Origin: an uncultured Planctomycetales bacterium
Lineage (GTDB): Bacteria > Omnitrophota > Gorgyraeia > Gygaellales > Profunditerraquicolaceae
Direction of reading: 5' to 3'
DNA: 47,210 nucleotides
Assembly (NCBI GenBank): GCA_964582765.1
Contig: CAZOSW010000005.1
Location: 1-47,210, forward strand
A program made the position numbers and the translations under genes. Shown piece by piece: positions 1 through 47,210 of this stretch (its first letter is position 1; each line of letters opens with the position of its first letter). The notes under the pieces are model-generated. The model had not been told where the DNA came from. It was given only the letters and a program-made list of their open reading frames with translations, and searched no databases.

Positions 1-70
1 ATAGTCAATAGTCGATAAAACCCTTTCATTATTGAGATTTTTATCGTCCATAGTCCATCGACTATCGACT
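1..70. repeat. Heptamer-palindrome element family A, copy A1 (truncated by window edge)
   Basis: ATAGTCA ATAGTCG ATAAAA-loop-TTTT ATCGTCC ATAGTCC ATCGACT ATCGACT. Positions 7-70 are the exact reverse complement of 909-972. Confidence 0.9.
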
Positions 71-73
71 AAA

Positions 74-889
74 TTACAATTCCTTTTCCTGTTCAACGAC
101 GAATTTTCTTAATTTTCTTAAAGCTGTTTCTTCTATCTGGCGGATTCTCTCGCGGGAAACACCGAGTTTTTTAGAAACTACCGCCAGTGTCTGTGGTTTG
201 GGATTAGTCAGGCCAAAACGCAAATCCAGGATTTCTCTTTCTCTTTCCGACATTGTCCCAAGAAGGTTATCTACCCTCTCCCGGTTGAACAATCGCTCGA
301 TACCCGCATCAGGGGGAGTAGAATTTTTATCTTCGACTAAATCGGATATCTGATTTTCGCCGTCCTCGCCAAGCGGCGCCTCTAATGAAGAAGTAGTGCT
401 GGACATCCAAAAATTTATCTGCTCTATTTTTTCAAAAGGCAGCTTTATTTTTTTGGCGATCTCTTCATCTGTCGGTATATGTTTTAATTTTTGGCTCATG
501 CGCTCTTTAGTTTTTTTCCATTTAGCGATCAGGTCGTTCATATACACCGGGACGCGGATCATCTTGCTTTGCTCGCTGAGGGAGCGGGTAATCCCCTGCC
601 TGATCCACCAGGCGGCGTAAGTTGAAAAACGAAAACCTTTTCGGTGGTCAAATTTTTCAACTGCTTTTATCAGGCCAAGGTTTCCCTCTTCGATTAAATC
701 AAGAAACGGGGTTCCCATATGCATGTAATGTTTTGCGATATGGATTACAAGGCGTAAGTTTCCACGGATCATATCGCGCCGCGCAATCTCATTGCCTTTA
801 CGCACCTTCTTATTTAGGTCAATTTCCTGCTTTGCGGTTAGAAGAGGAATTGTTCTTACTTCTTTGAGGTATGTTTTGAGAGCTTCCAT
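74..889 (-). CDS. RNA polymerase sigma-70 factor, RpoD/RpoS-like, lacking region 1.1
   Basis: Region 1.2 (LKTYLKEVRTIPLLT), region 2 (NLRLVIHIAKHY, DLIEEGNLGLIKAVEKFD, FSTYAAWWIRQ) and region 4.2 (LGVSRERIRQIE). AGGAG RBS upstream. Confidence 0.95.
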   Translation of the reverse strand: MEALKTYLKEVRTIPLLTAKQEIDLNKKVRKGNEIARRDMIRGNLRLVIHIAKHYMHMGTPFLDLIEEGNLGLIKAVEKFDHRKGFRFSTYAAWWIRQGITRSLSEQSKMIRVPVYMNDLIAKWKKTKERMSQKLKHIPTDEEIAKKIKLPFEKIEQINFWMSSTTSSLEAPLGEDGENQISDLVEDKNSTPPDAGIERLFNRERVDNLLGTMSEREREILDLRFGLTNPKPQTLAVVSKKLGVSRERIRQIEETALRKLRKFVVEQEKEL

Positions 890-908
890 TGATCTCCTAA
901 AAATTAAA

Positions 909-990
909 AGTCGATAGTCGATGGACTATGGACGATAAAAATCTCAATAATGAAAGGGTTTTATCGACTATTTTCTATCGACTATAGTCC
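909..990. repeat. Heptamer-palindrome element family A, copy A2
   Basis: AGTCGAT AGTCGAT GGACTAT GGACGAT AAAA-18 nt loop-TTTT ATCGACT ATTTTCT ATCGACT ATAGTCC. The arms are imperfect reverse complements. Confidence 0.9.
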
Positions 991-993
991 AAA

Positions 994-3744: not shown

Positions 3745-3763
3745 TACGTTTCCCTTTCTTTAG

Positions 3764-3845
3764 TTGGTCGATTGTCGATGGACGATGGACGATAAAAATT
3801 TCTCTGTCAGGTTTTATTGACTATAGACCATAGCCTATCGACTAT
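3764..3845. repeat. Heptamer-palindrome element family A, copy A3
   Basis: GGTCGAT TGTCGAT GGACGAT GGACGAT AAAAA-loop-TTTT ATTGACT ATAGACC ATAGCCT ATCGACT AT. Contains the glyQS TAG stop. Confidence 0.88.
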
Positions 3846-5140
3846 ATCAATTTATTTATTAAATACTCTTTCAATTTATCTATGGAAATTCGTTCTTGCA
3901 ACATCGTATCCCTATCGCGGACAGTTACCTGCTTATCTTCCAGCGTTTGCACGTCCACGGTTACGCAGTAGAGTGTGCCTACTTCATCTTGCCTGCGGTA
4001 TAATTTTCCGATAGAGCCCGTATCATCGTAAACCGCAACAATGGATTTTTTTAAATCTTGGGTAATCTTTTTAGCAAGCTCAACGATATCCGGCCGGTTG
4101 CGTAATAACGGCAGAATTGCCAGTTTTGTCGGAACCAGGTTTTTATTTAATTTTAATACTACGCGGGTTTCCTCTTTTACTTTTTCTTCATGGTAGGCAT
4201 CAATTAGAAATGCCAGGACCGCCCTGTCAACTCCACCGGAAGGCTCAATAATATAAGGATAGAACTTTTCCTTTGCCGCGTCATCAAAATACTGCAGGTC
4301 TTTACCGCTGTATTGTGCGTGTTGTTTTAAATCATAGTCTGAGCGGTTGGCAATTCCCTCCAGTTCCGACCAGCCGAAGGGAAAGTTATATTCTACGTCC
4401 ATGCAGGCGTGGGCGTAATGCGCCAATTCATCTTTACCGTGTTGGCGTTTTCTTAAATTTTCTTCTTTTATTCCTAATGATAAATACCAGTTAAAACGGT
4501 TCTCGACCCATTCTGCATGCGCCCTTTCGGCATCCTGCGGCCTTACAAAATATTCGATTTCCATTTGTTCAAATTCCCGCGTGCGAAAAGTAAAATTTCC
4601 CGGGGTTATTTCATTGCGGAATGATTTTCCGATTTGCGCCAGCCCAAAAGGCAATTTAGGATGTTTTGAGTCCAGGATATTCGAAAAATTTACAAACATG
4701 CCCTGTGCAGTTTCAGGGCGCAGATGAATAATATTGGCAGCATCATCTAGCGGGCCCTGGTGCGTTTTGAACATTAAGTTAAACGGCCGGGATTCGGTAA
4801 GTTCTCCGGCGCATTCCGGGCAGCGGTATTTATCTTTTAGGTCTTCGGTTTTAAAACGTTTCTTACAGTTTTTACAATCGCTTTTTAAATCGAAAAAATT
4901 ATCTATGTGGCCGCTTGCCTCCCAGACCCTGGGGTGCATAAGGATAGCTGCATCCATGCCGAAGACATCGCTTCTCTCGTAAACGCAAGATCTCCACCAA
5001 GCGTGTTTGAGGTTATTTTTTAGCTCGACCCCATAGGGCCCGTAATCCCAGGTGTTAGCCAGGCCCCCGTAGATTTCGCTTCCCTGAAAAATAAATCCGC
5101 GCCGTTTACAAAGTGATACTATTTTTTCCATTAATTCCAT
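3842..5140 (-). CDS. glyQS: Glycine--tRNA ligase, alpha2 type
   Basis: CKRRGFIF, YDYGPYG-like WDYGPYG, LRPETAQG, FRNEITPGNF, REFEQME, IEPSGGVDR and anticodon-binding domain (SIGKLYRRQDEVG). Confidence 0.97.
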   Translation of the reverse strand: MELMEKIVSLCKRRGFIFQGSEIYGGLANTWDYGPYGVELKNNLKHAWWRSCVYERSDVFGMDAAILMHPRVWEASGHIDNFFDLKSDCKNCKKRFKTEDLKDKYRCPECAGELTESRPFNLMFKTHQGPLDDAANIIHLRPETAQGMFVNFSNILDSKHPKLPFGLAQIGKSFRNEITPGNFTFRTREFEQMEIEYFVRPQDAERAHAEWVENRFNWYLSLGIKEENLRKRQHGKDELAHYAHACMDVEYNFPFGWSELEGIANRSDYDLKQHAQYSGKDLQYFDDAAKEKFYPYIIEPSGGVDRAVLAFLIDAYHEEKVKEETRVVLKLNKNLVPTKLAILPLLRNRPDIVELAKKITQDLKKSIVAVYDDTGSIGKLYRRQDEVGTLYCVTVDVQTLEDKQVTVRDRDTMLQERISIDKLKEYLINKLI

Positions 5141-7372: not shown

Positions 7373-8168
7373 CTTCTTTAATTATAAATGAGTGTTTGGC
7401 CTCAGGAAATTTTTCATTGATAACTTCGTTTTTAAAATCCTCGACCGCTTTTAAAATTAACGGGGAAAGATCGGCATATTTTTTAACAAACTTCGGGGTG
7501 TAACGCGTAAAAAGCCCGAGCATATCATTGATTACAAGGACTTGCCCATCGCAATGAATTCCGGCACCGATACCGATGGCCGGGATTTTTATTTTCTTTG
7601 TGATGAGTTGGGCGATTTTATCCGGCACGCATTCTAAAACAATGGCAAAGCACCCTTTTTTTTCAAGCTCCACTGCTTGTTCAATCAGGCGTAAAGCCGC
7701 CGAAGCATCTTTACCCTGGCATTTAAAACCTCCGATTTTATCTGCGGTCTGGGGGGTTAAGCCAATATGCCCCATTACAGCTATGCCTGCCTTGGTAATG
7801 CGTTCGGTAACTTCTAAACAGCGCTCAAACCATTCCAGCTTCACTGCTTGGCAACCTGCCTCATCGATAAATCTTTGCGCGTTTTTAACGCATTCTTCAG
7901 GGTTAAGCTGATAGGAATCGTAAGGCATATCTCCGATAAGTAGGGCGTTTTTTACAGCACGCCTTACAGCTTTGGCGTGATGCAGCATTTCTGGCATACC
8001 AACCTTAGTAGTTGAATCAAGCCCTAAGACCACATTAGCCAGTGAATCACCTACTAAGATTATATCTATCCCTGCTTGATCAATTAATTCGGCAGTAGGA
8101 TAATCATAAGCAGTAAGCATGGTAATTTTACGCCTACCTTTTAAATTTTTAATATCGCTTGAGTTCAT
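7344..8168 (-). CDS. panB: 3-methyl-2-oxobutanoate hydroxymethyltransferase
   Basis: ITMLTAYD, ILVGDSL, HIGLTPQ and IGIGAG..CDGQVLV. Confidence 0.97.
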   Translation of the reverse strand: MNSSDIKNLKGRRKITMLTAYDYPTAELIDQAGIDIILVGDSLANVVLGLDSTTKVGMPEMLHHAKAVRRAVKNALLIGDMPYDSYQLNPEECVKNAQRFIDEAGCQAVKLEWFERCLEVTERITKAGIAVMGHIGLTPQTADKIGGFKCQGKDASAALRLIEQAVELEKKGCFAIVLECVPDKIAQLITKKIKIPAIGIGAGIHCDGQVLVINDMLGLFTRYTPKFVKKYADLSPLILKAVEDFKNEVINEKFPEAKHSFIIKEDELKKIEGI

Positions 8169-8176
8169 AAAATAAA

Positions 8177-9415
8177 TTATTTAATAAAAGAAGTAAAAAA
8201 TAGAATTAAAGAAAGCAGGATCATCCCGGCCATTATTAATATTGTAAAGAAATTATAGAACCCGGAATTTGTATATTTACCCATCAGGCGTTTATTATTA
8301 ACCAAAAGCAGCATGAATACTAGCACAAAAGGAAGCAGGATTCCGTTAGTAGCCTGAGATATAAGCATAATCGGTATAAGTTTTACTCCCGGTATTAATA
8401 TAACCGCAGCACCGATTGCAATAATTGCCGTGTATAAGCTATAAAATTGCGGCGCTTCTTTAAAAGTGCGGTTAACTCCTATTTCCCAACCCATGCCTTC
8501 GCATACCGAATACGCGGTAGACAGGGGTAAGATGCAGGCGGAAAAAACCGAAGCATTAAGAAGGCCAAAGGCAAAAAGATAAAAACAGTATTGCCCGGCT
8601 AAAGGTTTTAAAGCAAGGGCGGCGTCCTTGGCTGTTTCAATCCTTATGCCATTAGCAAAAAGGGTATTAGCGCATACTATGATGATAAAAATGGCAATAA
8701 TATTAACTATAAATGCGCCAATGATTACATCAAGACGGCTGTATTTATAGTTTTCTATCTTAATACCTTTTTCTACTATCGAAGATTGTTGGTAAAATTG
8801 CATCCATGGTGCGATGGTGGTGCCTACGACTCCGATAAGCATAAAAACATAAGCTTTATCAAAATGAAATTGCGGGGAAATTGAGCTTGAAGCAATCATT
8901 TTCCAGTCAGGCTTAGAGAGGAATCCCGAAACTATATAGCAAAGGTAAAATAAGCAGGCAACCAAAAAAACTTTTTCAACTGATTTATAAGTTCCTTTTA
9001 CAATAAGCCACCAGACGAATAACGCACATATTGGTACAAGTAAGTATTTACTGATTCCAAAGAGTTCGGCGCTGGCGGCAATACCGGCAAACTCTGAAAT
9101 TGTGTTAAAAATATTAGAAAATACCAGAACAGTCATTGCGTAAAAGGTAACTTTGACTCCAAATTCCTCGCGTATTAGGTCTGCAAGGCCCTTGCCTGTA
9201 ACTATAGCCATACGGCTGCACATCTCCTGAATTATTACTAAAGCGATAATAATCGGGATGAATGACCATATCAGGGTGTAGCCAAAATGCGCGCCGGCGA
9301 CTGAATAAGTAGTTATGCCTCCGGCATCGTTATCGACGTTAGCGGTGATAATACCCGGGCCCATTACCGAAAGAAAGATTAAAATTTTTACCCAGTAACT
9401 TTTTAATTTTCTCAT
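8177..9415 (-). CDS. NRAMP-family divalent metal transporter (Mg2+-type NRMT subgroup likely)
   Basis: About 11 hydrophobic helices. TM1 GPGIITANVDNDAGG and TM6 GTTIAPW replace the canonical DPGN/MPH motifs. Confidence 0.9.
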   Translation of the reverse strand: MRKLKSYWVKILIFLSVMGPGIITANVDNDAGGITTYSVAGAHFGYTLIWSFIPIIIALVIIQEMCSRMAIVTGKGLADLIREEFGVKVTFYAMTVLVFSNIFNTISEFAGIAASAELFGISKYLLVPICALFVWWLIVKGTYKSVEKVFLVACLFYLCYIVSGFLSKPDWKMIASSSISPQFHFDKAYVFMLIGVVGTTIAPWMQFYQQSSIVEKGIKIENYKYSRLDVIIGAFIVNIIAIFIIIVCANTLFANGIRIETAKDAALALKPLAGQYCFYLFAFGLLNASVFSACILPLSTAYSVCEGMGWEIGVNRTFKEAPQFYSLYTAIIAIGAAVILIPGVKLIPIMLISQATNGILLPFVLVFMLLLVNNKRLMGKYTNSGFYNFFTILIMAGMILLSLILFFTSFIK

Positions 9416-10740
9416 GTCGCCTGAAAGATTTTTATCTTTTTTAACCTGCGCCAGGCAAAGGCAATTAACTGGCTTAAGATATCATCAACGGTTATAATCC
9501 CCTGCAGGATGTTGTTTTCATCGACAACCGGTATAGCAAAATACTTATATTTTTCCATCAAATAAGCAACTTCCTTGACGCTTGAATCAAGGCGGACGAA
9601 ATATGTTTTAGGAAAAGCAGAATTTTGGATAGGTTCTTCCGGGCCTGCCATAATAAGCCGGCGTAAATTAGTTGCGTTAATAAGGTGCCCGGTTTCATCA
9701 ATAATATAAATAGACTGTACAGGTTCGGACTTAAATTTACGCTCCTTTATTTGGTTTAAGGCAGACTGCACGGGAGTATCTTTGGCAAAGGCGATATATT
9801 CGGTAGTCATCAGCCCGCCGGCAGAATCCCCGGAGTAACCCAGAAGCTGCGAAAGGCGCTTGGAGTATTTATTTTCAATTAGATTAAGAATATGTTTGGT
9901 CTTATCTTGGGGTAATTTTTCTAAAAAGTCCGTGGCCTCATCCGAAGGAATATTGTTAAACAATTCAGAAATCTGTTGGTCAGTGCTTTCCTCAAGAAGC
10001 AGGCGCTGGGTTTTAAAATCAATATTGGTAAAAATTTTAGCTTTGTTTGCAAGATTTAAGGATTTAAAAAGCGCGATTTGATGGTTAATATTCAAATCCA
10101 GAAAGATGTCCCCCAAGTCTGCGGCGGGGATATTAGTAAGATTTTTTTGCGGCATGTCAATTTTTATCGACATGCTTACCGGGTTAATGGTAAGCGGTTG
10201 AATATATTTCCATGAGATTAGATGCTCGTTTTTAAGGTATTTTGCCTTCGGGTTAAATAAATTTACAATTAAATCCACCATTTTTTCAAAACCCAGGCGC
10301 CTAAATAACCCACGGCCGCCGATATCTACGTGGGCAATCATTAATGCATGATCAACGATTAAAAGCTGGATATCATTTACGCGGATAACTTTATGATTAT
10401 AGGTATCAACCACTTGCTGGTCGAGTATGTCGCGCCTTAAGGTAAGTTCTTTTTTATCATCGTGAACTTCAATATAATTTAGCGCAGATCCTTGAGTCTT
10501 TAGGGTACAGCCTTCCTTATCGATGCGTTCAATATCCTGCCAATTTATTAGTGCATATTTACGGTTAGGGAAACCTTTGCGGATAATTAGGCCATCTGAA
10601 ACCGGGTATACCTGCGAAGGTTTTACTATTAAATCATAAATTTCTCCGATTCTCCTGCCGTCTTTGTCCAGTACAGGCCTATCCATTAGCTCGGAGAAAA
10701 AAATAAACATTTTAGTAGCGTTAGCAATAGAGGTAATCAT
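9412..10740 (-). CDS. Soluble MgtE-like protein (PRC-barrel, MgtE N-domain, CBS pair; no membrane domain)
   Basis: PRC-like VLDKDGRRIGEIYDL, DSAGGLMTTEY and CBS motif IPVVDENNILQGIITVDD. No transmembrane stretch follows. Confidence 0.88.
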   Translation of the reverse strand: MITSIANATKMFIFFSELMDRPVLDKDGRRIGEIYDLIVKPSQVYPVSDGLIIRKGFPNRKYALINWQDIERIDKEGCTLKTQGSALNYIEVHDDKKELTLRRDILDQQVVDTYNHKVIRVNDIQLLIVDHALMIAHVDIGGRGLFRRLGFEKMVDLIVNLFNPKAKYLKNEHLISWKYIQPLTINPVSMSIKIDMPQKNLTNIPAADLGDIFLDLNINHQIALFKSLNLANKAKIFTNIDFKTQRLLLEESTDQQISELFNNIPSDEATDFLEKLPQDKTKHILNLIENKYSKRLSQLLGYSGDSAGGLMTTEYIAFAKDTPVQSALNQIKERKFKSEPVQSIYIIDETGHLINATNLRRLIMAGPEEPIQNSAFPKTYFVRLDSSVKEVAYLMEKYKYFAIPVVDENNILQGIITVDDILSQLIAFAWRRLKKIKIFQAT

Positions 10741-19822: not shown

Positions 19823-19850
19823 GGAAATTTTGAAAATTTAAACTCGGTTT

Positions 19851-19932
19851 TAGTTATTAGCTCATAGGTATTAGCTCATAGGTACCATTGTACAGTGACC
19901 TAAGAGCCAAGAGCTATGAGCTAAGAACTAAC
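19851..19932. repeat. Heptamer-palindrome element family B, copy B1
   Basis: TAGTTAT TAGCTCA TAGGTAT TAGCTCA TAGGTAC-CATTGTACAGT-GACCTAA GAGCCAA GAGCTAT GAGCTAA GAACTAA. Abuts the dnaE stop. Confidence 0.9.
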
Positions 19933-23367: not shown

Positions 23368-23371
23368 GTGT

Positions 23372-23452
23372 TTAGTTCTTAGTTCATAGCTCTTAGGTTG
23401 CAAGGAAACCCACGGTTTTCTAAGAGCTAAAACCTAAGAGCTAAGACCTAAA
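23372..23452. repeat. Heptamer-palindrome element family B, copy B2
   Basis: TAGTTCT TAGTTCA TAGCTCT TAGGTTG-loop (GAAACC-CAC-GGTTTT)-CTAAGAG CTAAAAC CTAAGAG CTAAGAC CTAA. Confidence 0.88.
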
Positions 23453-35401: not shown

Positions 35402-35442
35402 TTTTATATTATTAATGCAGTAGGCTAGGGAATTTTAAAATT

Positions 35443-35551
35443 GGTCGATAGTCGATGGCCTATGGTTAATAAAACCATTGGTTGTTAGCTCTTGGCTCAT
35501 ATCTCATAGGTCTCATTGTAAGTTTCCTGCGAGCTAAAAACTATGAGCTAA
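35443..35551. repeat. Composite element: family A half-copy (35443-35474) plus family B copy B3 (35479-35551)
   Basis: GGTCGAT AGTCGAT GGCCTAT GGTTAAT AAAA, then TGGTTGT TAGCTCT TGGCTCA TATCTCA TAGGTCT CATTGTA...GAGCTAA AAACTAT GAGCTAA. Contains the cimA TAG stop. Confidence 0.85.
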
Positions 35552-39591: not shown

Positions 39592-40226
39592 GTTATTTTA
39601 TTCCTCATTAATTTAACTAAGCCGCTTGCCATTTTTACTTTCGAAAAGAATGGCCCGTGATGGATAGTATTCTCCAATATATATGCACAATAATTTCCTT
39701 CTCTATTTGAATTGGCAACTACTAAATCTAAATCAGTACGTTTAAGCAGTGCCTTACCCTCATTTATCAGCTTATTATTATTTCCATCCGGTTCAAATTT
39801 AAAACCAACTTTAAATAAATTATTCCTGTAAACCCCTAAACTATTTATCAGTTTTTTTGTCGGGATTAAATTAATTCTCCAGCTGATGCGATCTGAATCA
39901 ACTTTGCTTTTTATTATTTTATTAGGTTTATAATCAGACACTGCCGCGGCATGAATAACGGCGCTATATATTTTTTTCTTTAATTCCTTTTTTAAAAGGG
40001 TTTCGAGCTGCGAAAAGTATTTAAAACGAATTATTTTTATCCCTTCTATGCTGCCTAAAAAATAACCCGGACCAAGTAACAACGTAACATCTATTCCTAA
40101 ACTTTTAAATTTATCTGCTAGAATAAAACCCGTTTTTCCGGAAGCAATATTACTGATTACCCTTGCTTTATCTATGGCAACCCATGTAGGCCCAGCGGTA
40201 ATCAAAACTTTCTTTTTAGTAATCAA
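39588..40226 (-). CDS. coaB: Stand-alone phosphopantothenate--cysteine ligase (CoaB domain)
   Basis: [32 protein letters not shown] and VVAN. No CoaC flavoprotein domain. Confidence 0.85.
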
Positions 40227-41313
40227 TTTCTTTAATTATTGATTTTAAATCCGGCCGTAGCTCCTTAGGCGGTTTGATCGTCTTTATTGCTCGCTCAGGG
40301 TCTTTTAGCCCATGGCCGGTCAGTATGCACACTATTCTAAACTTGGTCGATGGGCTATGGCTGATTGCCGATAAAAATTTCTTAAAATAACCCTTTTTAA
40401 TCAATTTTAATAAGCCGGCAATGGAGGCCGCTGAGGCAGGCTCAGCAAATAGGCCTTCTTTTTCGGCAAGTAATCTATACGCAGAGATAATTTCTTTATC
40501 TGAGACAAGATCAATTAACCCGCCGGATTCATCACGAGCCAAAACTGCACTCTTCCAACTGGCAGGATTTCCGATACGAATGGCTGTGGCCAAAGTTTGC
40601 GGTTCTTTAATTGGTTTATTCCTTACGATTGGCGCAGCTCCTTCTGCCTGAAAACCTAACATCACAGGAAGTTTTTTACTTAATCCCTCCTTTTTATATT
40701 CTTTGTAACCTTTCCAATAAGCAGTAATATTACCAGCATTTCCTACCGGCATAATTTGAAAATCTGGAGCATCACCAAGATAGTCGCAAATTTCAAAACT
40801 TGCGGTTTTCTGTCCTTCAATACGGTATGGATTCAGTGAATTTACCAATACAATAGGATATTTGTTTGTAATTTCTTTTACAAGGTCTAATGCAACATCA
40901 AAATTCCCTTTGATTGCTAAAACCTTAGCACCGTGGATTAAGGCTTGACTAAGCTTACCTAGGGCAATTGCTCCGCTGGGAATAAGTACAATACATTTTA
41001 TCCCGGCTTTCGCTGCATAAGCAGCAGCAGAAGCAGATGTATTTCCTGTGGAAGCGCACATAACTGCAGTTGCATTTTTCTGGCAAGCTTTAGATATAGC
41101 CATCGTCATTCCCCGGTCTTTAAATGAACCCGTAGGATTAAGCCCTTCATATTTTAAATAGACCTCTATGCTATCCCCGGCCAGCTTACTTAAGAATCCT
41201 GCGTAAATTAAAGGAGTATCTCCCTCATTCAGAGTAATTATCGGCGTTTTATCGCTTACCGGTAGGAATTTTTTATACCTTTGGATTATTCCTCTATTGA
41301 TTTTCTGAATCAC
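40216..41313 (-). CDS. thrC: Threonine synthase
   Basis: [33 protein letters not shown] and LTGHGLKDP. Confidence 0.97.
40343..40381. repeat. Family A half-element inside thrC (in frame)
   Basis: 32/39 identical, ungapped, to 3764-3802. Confidence 0.85.
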
Positions 41314-42608
41314 TATAGACCCTCAATTCTTATGGCAACTGATTTTTCTTTAATATCCGCCAATTTATCAATCATCTTTAAAGCTCCGCGTAGATTTTTT
41401 TCTTTTACCTCATGCGTAACCATAACTACCGGGACTACTTGAGACTTTAATCTCTCTTTTTGCGTCACCGAGGCAATGCTAATGCCGAATTTTGACAGGA
41501 TTCCTGCTATTTTGGCCAAAACACCAGGTTTATCCACAGCCATAATACGAATATAGTATTTATTTTCAAATTCATCGATTTTACGCAGGCCTTTAATCGA
41601 ATTATCTTCAATTGAATTTAAAGTAGGCCTGAATAATCCGGCTTTAATATCCTGAGTAAGGTCAACGATGTCTGAAACTACCGCGCTTGCTGCAGGCAAT
41701 TGCCCTGCCCCGGGGCCATAAAACATGATATCTCCTGCCAAATCGCTTGAAACATAGATTGCATTAAAGACGCCATCCACAGAAGAAAGTAAATGTTCAG
41801 AGGGGAGAAAAGTGGGATGCACGCGCACCTCAAGTTCATCAAGTTCTTTTTTTGCGATAGCCAATAATTTTATCTCATATCCTAATTCTTTGGCATAAGC
41901 AATATCTAAGGCAGAAACTTGTGAAATTCCTTCGATAAAAATATCCTTTATTGCTACAATTTTTCCAAAAGCTAAATAAGTAAGCAATACAAGCTTATGC
42001 GCTGAATCAATACCTTGGATATCCATAGTTGGGTCTTTCTCTGCGAAGCCTTTAGCCTTAGCCGAAGCAATTGCATTCTCGAAAGAACAATTTTCTTTAG
42101 ACATCTGCGTAAGTACATAATTTGAAGTACCGTTTACAATACCAAAAATAGAACTAAATTTATTAGCCACTAGGCCTTCTTTTATTGATTTTATAATAGG
42201 GATGCCCGCACCTACAGAAGCCTCAAAATAAATATTTTTTCCACGCTCAGCTGCTTCACTGAATAGTTCATTGCCACACTTAGCAAGTAATGCTTTATTA
42301 GCGGTAACTACATGCTTGCCTTTCTTTAGGGCACTAAGAATAAATTCTTTTGCCGGACTAAGGCCGCCTATCAACTCGACAACTATATCAATCTGAGGGT
42401 CATTGATAATCTCGTTGGCATCAGTGGTAAGTAAATTTTTATCTATAGAAAGGCCTCTTTTCTTTATGATGTCTTTATCACATATTTTCTTTATTACAAT
42501 TTCAATACCTATTTTTTGAGATAACAGAGATTTTCGAAGCTGGAGAATTTTTATTACCCCGCATCCAATATTACCAAAACCGATTAGGCCAATATTAATT
42601 TTTCTCAA
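41313..42608 (-). CDS. hom: Homoserine dehydrogenase
   Basis: [33 protein letters not shown] and C-terminal ACT domain. Confidence 0.97.
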
Positions 42609-43044: not shown

Positions 43045-43383
43045 TTAACCAGTTGGATTGTTTTTAACAAACCAATCGACATAATCGCGAATTATTTTTT
43101 TTTGTTCCTCATTAAGTTCGATAAACCGCAAACGTGTTTTACACTGAAAAGATTCGATTACTTTTCCTTTTGCATTCAACCAGTGCGAAGGATCAAAGGG
43201 TATTTTAAAACGCAATACAAGTACCTGGTCTTTTGTAAAATTCTTATTTGTGCATAACAGAATCCCTTCAGTGCTAATATTTTTAATTGATGTTGAATCC
43301 CAGTGAGTAACTTCTGGCTCATCTTCAGAGTATTGAGCCACTAGGACTTTTTCAATCCGAGAAGCCTTTCGTTTTTCATCCAT
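43045..43383 (-). CDS. PilZ domain protein
   Basis: EKRKASR and NISTEG motifs. Start reassigned to ATG 43383 behind GGGAGG. Confidence 0.88.
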   Translation of the reverse strand: MDEKRKASRIEKVLVAQYSEDEPEVTHWDSTSIKNISTEGILLCTNKNFTKDQVLVLRFKIPFDPSHWLNAKGKVIESFQCKTRLRFIELNEEQKKIIRDYVDWFVKNNPTG

Positions 43384-43435
43384 AGTAATAGTTTCCTCCC
43401 TTAATCCTTGCTCGCGTTGCTGTCGTGGATTAAAT

Positions 43436-43509
43436 TCGGGGCGACAGGACTTGAACCTGTGACCTCTTGAACCCCATTCAAGCGCTCTACCAAGCTGAGC
43501 CACGCCCCG
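43436..43509 (-). tRNA. tRNA-Pro(GGG)
   Basis: CGGGGCG acceptor stem, D arm GCTCAGCTTGGTAGAGC, anticodon arm CTTGA-ATGGGGT-TCAAG and T loop GGTTCAAGTCC. CCA not encoded. Confidence 0.96.
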
Positions 43510-43547
43510 TTTTGCCCTCAATTCTACCAAGTAAAACAATACTAAGC

Positions 43548-47157: not shown

Positions 47158-47210
47158 AGCGGGAGAGGGGAATCGAACCCCCATTCATAGCTTGGAAGGC
47201 TATTGTTCTA
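47158..47210 (-). tRNA. tRNA-Gly(TCC), 5' part outside the window
   Basis: Anticodon arm ATAGC-CTTCCAA-GCTAT, T arm GGGGG-TTCGATT-CCCCT and 3' end CTCCCGCT. Confidence 0.92.

Follow-up and report, generated by a model that had tools for sequence, protein, structure and literature searches.

A decayed arm of a dispersed heptamer repeat inside the threonine synthase gene of an uncultured Omnitrophota bacterium

The threonine synthase gene (thrC) of an uncultured bacterium of the phylum Omnitrophota carries within its reading frame a segment which belongs to a dispersed family of heptamer repeats of the same genome, called here family A, and the match is not a product of chance. The gene is located in the window, that is, the whole 47,210-base contig CAZOSW010000005.1 (C5) of a 1.33 Mb genome, which consists of 89 contigs, has a G+C content of 39.5%, is 92% complete and is labelled here G000. 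The segment is quite probably the fossil of one arm of a family A element, captured once in the ancestor of a small clade and drifting since then, and it is likely a tolerated passenger of the enzyme. The features needed to follow the argument are these:

40216..41313, minus strand: thrC, encoding a threonine synthase (ThrC) of 365 residues with a PALP domain (PF00291, E 5e-70)
40339..40382, plus strand (coding read on the minus strand): decayed single family A arm inside thrC, found by nhmmer at 33.8 bits
40345..40374, minus strand: 30 nt of codons for the extra loop residues L314–T323 of ThrC, from the translation and the gap against solved ThrC structures
3761..3847: intergenic family A hairpin A3, with two inverted heptamer arms and a short spacer, from the stop codon of a class II aminoacyl-tRNA synthetase (aaRS) gene to just before the ribosome-binding site (RBS) of the PPDK gene

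The original prediction had quoted the letters at 40343–40381 of the plus strand and aligned them with one arm of A3. The letters agree exactly with the window sequence, and the ungapped alignment to 3764–3802 gives the predicted 32 identities in 39 bases, which is the top non-self match in the genome. The next-best matches are C40:5768–5806 (31/39) and three arms at 29/39, and the 22 further genomic matches with at least 25 of 39 identities are, every one, heptamer arrays of the same type. Read in the orientation of the model, the thrC arm consists of TTGG, four RGNCKAT-like heptamers and GATAAAAATTTC. An nhmmer profile made from 17 family A arms, from which the thrC copy was excluded, matches it with a genome-wide E of 2.4e-8 over model positions 3–46 of 51, and the match spans both arm-end motifs. 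The four heptamer units of the thrC copy are all different, and the array is missed by Tandem Repeats Finder (TRF).

A resemblance by chance, or a chimera made in the assembly, has a negligible probability. It could be argued that the region is AT-rich and that the part of the flank match reading AAAAATTTC overlaps the codons AAG AAA TTT, which are also present in relatives without the insert. Nevertheless, when the codons of all 1026 open reading frames (ORFs) of at least 150 residues (1.07 Mb) were shuffled in 30 sets, a control proposed along with the prediction, the best score was 13.5 bits against 33.8 for the real segment, and no comparable match arose. Moreover, the match lies exactly where the protein has its insertion, and related inserts are present in three other lineages. 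The same sequence is also found in Logan contigs from three further lake-water runs (which may share one sampling campaign), where all or most of the insert is covered with 0–1 differences and no indel:

X2: covers 40226–41400
X3: covers 40322–40722
X4: covers 40224–40374

The E-value, the shuffles and the independent contigs together refute the reading as chance or chimera. Apparent skips in some contig alignments were ascribed to other organisms and set aside, with short sides (below 40 nt) and 85% likeness. The 365-residue ThrC stands on four database contigs (P0001 and P0002), and a 151-nt contig from a metatranscriptome library is exact over 40346–40496, which is merely a hint of expression, since DNA can occur in such libraries.

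The host gene is a full-length ThrC of the PALP fold. It aligns over residues 7–363 with the ThrC of Aquifex (2zsj, E 1.5e-142), contains both the SFKDRG lysine motif and the TGHGLKD motif, and has residues K65, D66 and T332–D338, which are invariant across 68 ThrC sequences. It is the sole close ThrC match in the genome and a single-copy gene, and its ORF is otherwise intact; it comes after a homoserine dehydrogenase-like ORF (41313..42608). An insertion of about 9–12 residues had been expected here, and an 11-residue gap is opened in all four aligned solved structures (2zsj, 1uim, 6cgq and 2d1f). The coding-strand frame through the segment is open and free of stops, as had been stated; the location and the encoded stretch were also given correctly, although one F had been omitted from the peptide context. 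The claim that family A is mobile and contributes protein sequence to a core enzyme holds in that a full arm adds residues to an intact, single-copy thrC. No second inverted arm is found beside the first; the adjoining codons are conserved ThrC sequence, and the mRNA folds at this place with −10.7 kcal/mol and no pairing of arms.

The loop in question runs from GYF to the cysteine of CILTGHG. It has 22 residues here versus 12–19 in all 29 relatives of the same genus or order. Counted from AG to C, and only in loci parsed by a regular expression, the segment has most often 20 residues in distant bacteria and 20–48 in Omnitrophota. Distant orthologues differ in loop length and in residues, which settles the orthologue comparison in favor of the original prediction. 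An AlphaFold model built from 68 diverse sequences has a mean predicted local distance difference test (pLDDT) score of 90.9 and puts the extra residues behind a short helix (309–315), in a coil (316–324) which leads to a strand (325–331); a model from 28 close homologues (mean pLDDT 47.6) was set aside. Among the 120 best homologues of this ThrC in the protein database, the loop lengths are distributed as follows:

12 residues: 18 homologues
13 residues: 2 homologues
15 residues: 6 homologues
16 residues: 40 homologues
17 residues: 40 homologues
18 residues: 1 homologue
19 residues: 6 homologues
22 residues: 5 homologues
24 residues: 1 homologue (P0052, read by eye)
31 residues: 1 homologue

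The five proteins with a 22-residue loop are:

P0001 and P0002: this species
P0003: 89% identical to this ThrC, loop GYFKKKLSTIDYRLSTKIRIVC
P0004: 86% identical
P0010: 83% identical

In a tree calculated with the loop masked, these five rows form one group (SH-aLRT 83), which joins a sister group with loops of 16–17 residues (support 92). The inserts of the P0003, P0004 and P0010 lineages read LSTIDYRLST, LSTIDYSPSA and LSGIDLQSSA, and each is nearly the direct translation of a heptamer array; LSTIDYRLS is the exact product of (CTATCGA)n in the purM gene of the present genome. The length of the insert is constant at 10 residues in the four lineages, and between them 4–7 of the 10 residues are identical versus 82.5–90.4% for the remaining protein. 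The insert is under relaxed sequence constraint and diverges faster than the rest of ThrC. The simplest reading of these sequences is a single capture in the ancestor of a small Omnitrophota clade, followed by rapid drift at fixed length; compared with the more canonical peptide of other clade members, the copy of the present genome is decayed. The scans of metagenomes and genomes returned no DNA locus with a 22-residue loop.

The donor family is well represented in the genome, with 35 significant arms at 23 loci. In an arm, a short lead (e.g., TTGG) is followed by RGNCKAT heptamers (ATMGNCY on the other strand), from three to about sixteen in number, and then by the end motif GATAAAA. More than one significant arm is present at 7 of the 23 loci, including an inverted pair at six, and the remaining 16 hold a single arm; full elements such as 3761–3847 fold as hairpins. 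Within the window, the elements are placed between co-directional genes, from the stop codon or just past it to before the next RBS. TRF finds period-7 arrays in the genome. The strict pattern (RGNCKAT)x3 occurs 40 times in G000 versus 0 for the reversed control, 9 times in G005, 16 in G006, 54 in G018 and 91 in G030, and never in 36 of the 40 relatives searched; reversed controls reach at most 8. The family A-type pattern is therefore patchy, being found in 5 of 41 genomes.

A second heptamer family, family B, comprises 41 arms, whose unit contains a stop triplet on either strand, TAG on one and TGA on the opposite one. With a period of 7 nt, each triplet falls into frame once in 21 nt, so an array of family B cannot be read through, while the ATCGACY units of family A contain no stop triplet. 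Arrays of such units would be open in every frame, which would make them frame-independent donors of peptides. The scan of all coding sequences with both profiles, as had been suggested, agrees with this: family A also has in-frame copies in purM, pyrK, hisF and a gene for an epimerase, and family B has no match within real coding sequences. In all four single-arm copies in coding sequence, the ATCGNCY strand is the coding strand. For intergenic arms, 36 of the 90 arm-frame combinations of the ATCGNCY strand are open, compared with 22 of 90 for the opposite strand, thus the coding filter is only moderate. The further in-frame copies of this genome are:

purM, C20:11992–12026: LSTIDYRLSAIK; 32 residues in G000, G018 and G006 versus a constant 29 in 22 relatives
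pyrK, C14:18247–18295: (CCATCGG)x4.7, 100% perfect, read as PSAIGHRPSAI
hisF, C34, around 8150–8230: about 22 extra residues from both arms and an A-rich loop, that is, a full hairpin
WbpP-like epimerase gene, C36:3–911: one arm and then a palindrome of the GGGACTGTCCC type, a type also seen beside a RAYT-like gene; the two give about 30 extra residues

The comparison with Rickettsia palindromic elements (RPEs), drawn in the original prediction from thrC, turned out stronger than could be known then, with five or more captures in frame here and further ones in other Omnitrophota. A copy in YggS (C17:47–715) is regarded as doubtful, as its 14.2 bits are barely above the shuffle maximum and there is almost no length change against solved structures. 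Strong matches at C13:14280–14323 and in the first 33 nt of the dnaE ORF were not counted as copies in coding sequence, since they are upstream of the likely true starts. Arms of families A and B overlap the first codons of the longest dnaE and leuA-like ORFs (window 23371–23404; C13:14280–14361), and the true starts are probably downstream, with the elements in the 5′ leaders.

Whether family A elements insert, or only expand where they are, can be judged by comparing, across 24 genomes of the genus, the syntenic spacer which separates the PPDK gene from that of the class II aaRS. The spacer is bare, with 21–22 nt, in five of them (G009, G013, G045, G048 and G004) and filled by family A in G000, G005 and G018. 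The other 16 hold different inserts, many of which are hairpin repeats of other families, some built of heptamers, and all inserts are located directly upstream of the same conserved RBS block. The thrC copy had been called the best evidence for insertion over expansion in place. The elements do insert, but the empty and filled spacers are the better evidence, and the arrays also turn over in place.

The latter is visible in purM and pyrK. The purM arrays are uniform internally yet species-specific, (CTATCGA) versus a perfect (CTATCAG)x4, and the same is true of pyrK with (CCATCGG), (CCATCGA) and (CTGTCAA)x4. Arrays are also present at the pyrK site in G005, G006, G018, G024 and G020, and of the 29 parsed relatives, 14 have a segment of 33 residues. 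Units which are uniform but different imply that the arrays were homogenised in place after arrival. Insertion and in-place expansion both happen.

This leads to an alternative in which the thrC loop is a hot spot of insertions and deletions where arrays are born by replication slippage, and the likeness to family A comes from a shared mutational or homogenising process. Such an origin is unlikely, yet it would explain several observations. In Omnitrophota the loop length is hypervariable (12–31 residues among the best 120 homologues, while the AG-to-C segment of the parsed loci reaches 48), the species-specific uniform arrays of purM and pyrK point to concerted evolution by slippage, and the same ThrC loop of other lineages contains arrays of different units, which are perfect in the first three rows:

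L038 and L047, other Omnitrophota: (CGAACAC)x4
L045, other Omnitrophota: (CGCACAA)x4
L133, other Omnitrophota: (GGGGCAA)x3
L123, 3404–3496, a metagenome locus: two arrays, (CGGTNYT)x4 and then (GCGCCAA)x5

The (CGAACAC)-type arrays are dispersed in two of their genomes and not in the third, and the (CGCACAA) array is unique in its genome. What decides against a birth in place is the detail of the thrC copy, which also matches both non-repeat arm ends (TTGG... and ...GATAAAAATTTC). Its unit type is that of the 35 dispersed arms of the genome and is absent from 36 of the 40 relatives searched, and the clade member with the least decay has an insert identical to the canonical array peptide. That a 7-nt array should arise from unrelated codons, keep the frame and converge on the family of its own genome is far less probable than copying.

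Loops of this kind also receive other arrays. The 31-residue ThrC loops of L123 and of protein P0038 read CSVFGSR / FSAKRQV / PSAKRQK, and arrays of period 8 or 10 are present in the ThrC loop (L160 and L126) and in pyrK of G015 (L263) and G016 (L270), e.g., (AAACAGGC)x4 and (GCGCCAGGAT)x2.7. The hot spots thus accept short arrays of other periods too.

In the scenario favored here, which describes the capture of one family A arm, about 30–44 nt would have been copied into the hypervariable loop joining the last large-domain helix to the strand before the TGHGLKD motif. The frame would be kept and a few native codons replaced. Inserts replace native codons instead of simply adding to them, as the net change is small (+3 residues for purM; +5 to +6 for thrC versus the sister group). 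Insert-free relatives have short stretches identical to the arm ends, e.g., AAA AAA TTT in thrC and CTTATCG in pyrK. Ectopic templated copying or gene conversion, primed by such short homology and followed by in-place slippage, would be the favored route; transposition by some enzyme is the alternative one. Point substitutions would then lead to drift, with an LSTIDYRLST-like peptide surviving in the relatives and the 10-residue length unchanged, and the loop codons of these clade relatives would be expected as ATCGACY heptamers with TTTTTATCG and CGACCAA ends. The status which is most likely is that of a tolerated passenger, "selfish DNA in a coding gene", which survives because the loop accepts almost any sequence and arrays of the ATCGNCY type have no stop triplet. 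We infer the neutrality, the replacement and the mechanism of copying from these comparisons.

A role for the segment, either as an mRNA motif for a common regulator of biosynthetic genes (thrC, hisF, purM and pyrK) or as a peptide altering the regulation or partner binding of ThrC, is still less probable than an origin in place. It would account for the length fixed at 10 residues in four lineages, for the confident model of the insert as predicted by AlphaFold, for the captured genes being mostly enzymes of amino-acid and nucleotide biosynthesis, and for intergenic copies lying between a stop codon and the next RBS; a translational role is proposed for TAACTGA heptamer repeats in the passages available from PMC4679880. 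The identity of the insert, however, is 40–70% versus 82–90% for the remaining protein, its heptamer pattern is decayed here to four different units and is TRF-negative, there is no partner arm for an mRNA hairpin, and most orthologues do without the insert.

Several observations weigh against the capture of a mobile arm as a neutral passenger. Residues 311–330 have pLDDT values of 91–94 in the AlphaFold model, so the insert is not predicted to be disordered and its fixed length could reflect constraint. The net gain over the sister group is only 5–6 residues, hence replacement must be assumed instead of a clean insertion of 30–33 nt. The inserts of P0003, P0004 and P0010 are known as peptides only. 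The species-specific perfect units at the orthologous purM and pyrK sites indicate that arrays evolve, and may even arise, in place, and two ThrC-loop arrays of other genomes have no second genomic copy at up to 2 mismatches. Neither the thrC junctions nor the aaRS-PPDK site show a visible target-site duplication. Finally, family A could be connected with no transposase: within 1.5 kb of the four Y1 (PF01797) genes there is no family A match (E up to 10), and 34 of 41 genomes have Y1 genes regardless of heptamers.

Three of the four Y1 genes, which are similar to the REP-associated tyrosine transposases (RAYTs) of repetitive extragenic palindromes (REPs), have their own inverted repeats in the flanks, and none were seen for the fourth (C37). 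The gene at C1:9524–9865 is flanked by GGGACAGT / GAGAACCGTCCC-type palindromes, and two other Y1 genes have different inverted repeats. As a mover of family A, Y1/RAYT was rejected, as no link was found in an assembly which is 92% complete in 89 contigs and from which a partner could be missing. A close palindrome (GGGACTGTCCC twice) is in frame in the epimerase insert (L033 110–150, minus strand), and in G007, G011 and G016 the aaRS-PPDK spacer is occupied by a GGGACTGTCCC-like palindrome as well. These palindromes seem to form a second, classical family of the REP/RAYT type, which also enters coding sequence.

The remaining elements of the window are the following:

1..74: family A element with which the contig begins; 70 nt of it are 97% complementary to 909–978
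904..992: family A hairpin in the intergenic space which separates the PPDK gene from a sigma-70 gene
19849..19931: family B hairpin of TAGCTCA-type units, with a further copy at 23371–23452
35437..35481, plus strand: solo family A arm, with a family B hairpin (35478–35551) directly after it

The contig begins inside a family A element, and the sigma-70 family gene (ORF 74..889, with regions 1.2, 2, 3 and 4) is flanked by inverted 70-nt copies of family A at 1–70 and 909–978. All long ORFs of the window are on the minus strand. The Rfam scan of the window at the gathering score gave two tRNAs and no other family. One tRNA gene (43436–43509, minus strand, 64.3 bits) is located inside the mechanically listed ORF 43045..43539, which is probably not a gene, and the second (47158–47210) is truncated by the contig end. 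Elsewhere in the genome, the 10.4 kb contig C36 (L033) is very rich in family A arrays, including about 16–17 heptamers at 10098–10216. Its positions 1857–1955, inside another array, are N, and at 9644–10369 it holds, between two arrays, the only PF05635 gene of the genome (23S rRNA intervening-sequence protein, bAvd-like). With one copy in the genome, this gene was rejected as a general partner of family A.

In-frame copies are also known outside the present genome. Two genes of G043 contain full hairpins:

G043 uvrA: full in-frame hairpin, about 21 extra residues
G043 trmD: full in-frame hairpin, about 22 extra residues

Another locus of the same genome, L214 (G043:C1, 876–3020), is a 715-residue open frame of unknown family with three in-frame (CGAAMAC)-type arrays (TENRTPKT, PQTDNRTPKT and SQTENRTPQTGE).

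The chances are slightly better than even that all these copies represent a phylum-wide class of heptamer-array hairpins in Omnitrophota, with lineage-specific units, which repeatedly colonise intergenic spaces and the permissive loops of core enzymes (ThrC, PurM, PyrK, HisF, UvrA and TrmD) and are translated there, while slippage keeps remodelling the loops. If this is true, the RPE-like phenomenon would have a second case, independent of the first and different in mechanism, in hosts which are free-living or episymbiotic uncultured Omnitrophota. Several of its stages can be observed side by side: pristine arrays (in pyrK, for example, (CCATCGG)x4.7), other units at the same site in sister species, the decayed fossil in thrC which a clade shares, and the empty and filled spacers. 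The birth, turnover and decay of repeat-derived peptide loops thereby become testable by comparative genomics and by the expression of enzymes with and without the inserts. Perfect heptamer arrays in essential genes are also a frameshift hazard, and such inserts can mislead orthologue alignment and the annotation of metagenome-assembled genomes.

To our knowledge, housekeeping genes which have taken up dispersed repeats in frame are described mainly from Rickettsia, and this kind of capture is one of the few observed routes from non-coding selfish DNA to protein sequence that we know of. The phenomenon is reportedly called a unique feature of Rickettsia in the title of a 2002 paper. The open-access literature yielded no description of in-frame repeat capture in Omnitrophota. 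The RPEs, found in Rickettsia, measure about 150 bp and fall into ten families, each of which has its own conserved peptide (Ogata et al. 2000, 2002, as summarised in the relevant passages of PMC10969869). By this description, they share several properties with family A: both are dispersed palindromic repeats, intergenic as well as in frame in unrelated housekeeping genes, which add a peptide without breaking the ORF, and RPEs, whose function is described there as unknown, are viewed as selfish DNA seeding new protein sequence (PMC10969869). Compared by these descriptions, family A differs in its units of 30–75 nt made of tandem heptamers in variable number, in homogenisation in place and in its Omnitrophota hosts. 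Unlike the peptide of an RPE, that of family A is a 7-residue periodic read-out of the STIDYRL type. The hallmark of RPEs, in-frame copies in unrelated genes, is found in thrC, purM, pyrK, hisF and the epimerase gene of G000 and in uvrA and trmD of G043. By analogy, family A can be considered RPE-like in function, yet it would not be classed as an RPE, and its structure would place it with the dispersed heptameric repeats.

The cyanobacterial STRR sequences are dispersed heptameric tandem repeats. Family A has the features of this class, with the same type of 7-nt unit at many dispersed loci and a patchy distribution. Known members include TAACTGA in Beggiatoaceae and cyanobacteria, with CspB-type proteins, which bind heptamer units, among the candidate binders (PMC4679880, in the passages on these repeats), and GGGAATC / GGGGAYT in Xanthomonas and Nostoc (PMC4692102, likewise). 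As far as these passages describe them, they have in common with family A the 7-nt unit, dispersed arrays of 2–6 or more copies near gene starts and stops, a patchy phylogeny and coding potential as a filter of sites. In-frame capture by conserved enzymes is not reported in the passages of PMC4679880 and PMC4692102 on the TAACTGA and GGGAATC / GGGGAYT repeats, which present mainly direct repeats, whereas the arms of family A are usually paired in hairpins and occur in at least five conserved enzymes of one genome.

With respect to MITEs (miniature transposable elements with inverted repeats), inverted arms are present in family A, no duplication is found at thrC or at the aaRS-PPDK site, and no related insertion sequence (IS) was identified. 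The likeness to REPs and their doublets, the REPINs, consists in short extragenic repeats forming inverted, hairpin-forming doublets after stop codons, as far as the passages of PMC3116915 describe them, and in the four RAYT-like Y1 genes of the genome. Unlike the arrangement of REP/REPIN sequences, no Y1 gene is flanked by family A, and its arms are tandem arrays and not a single imperfect palindrome. REPs are defined as extragenic, whereas family A is also translated within conserved enzymes.

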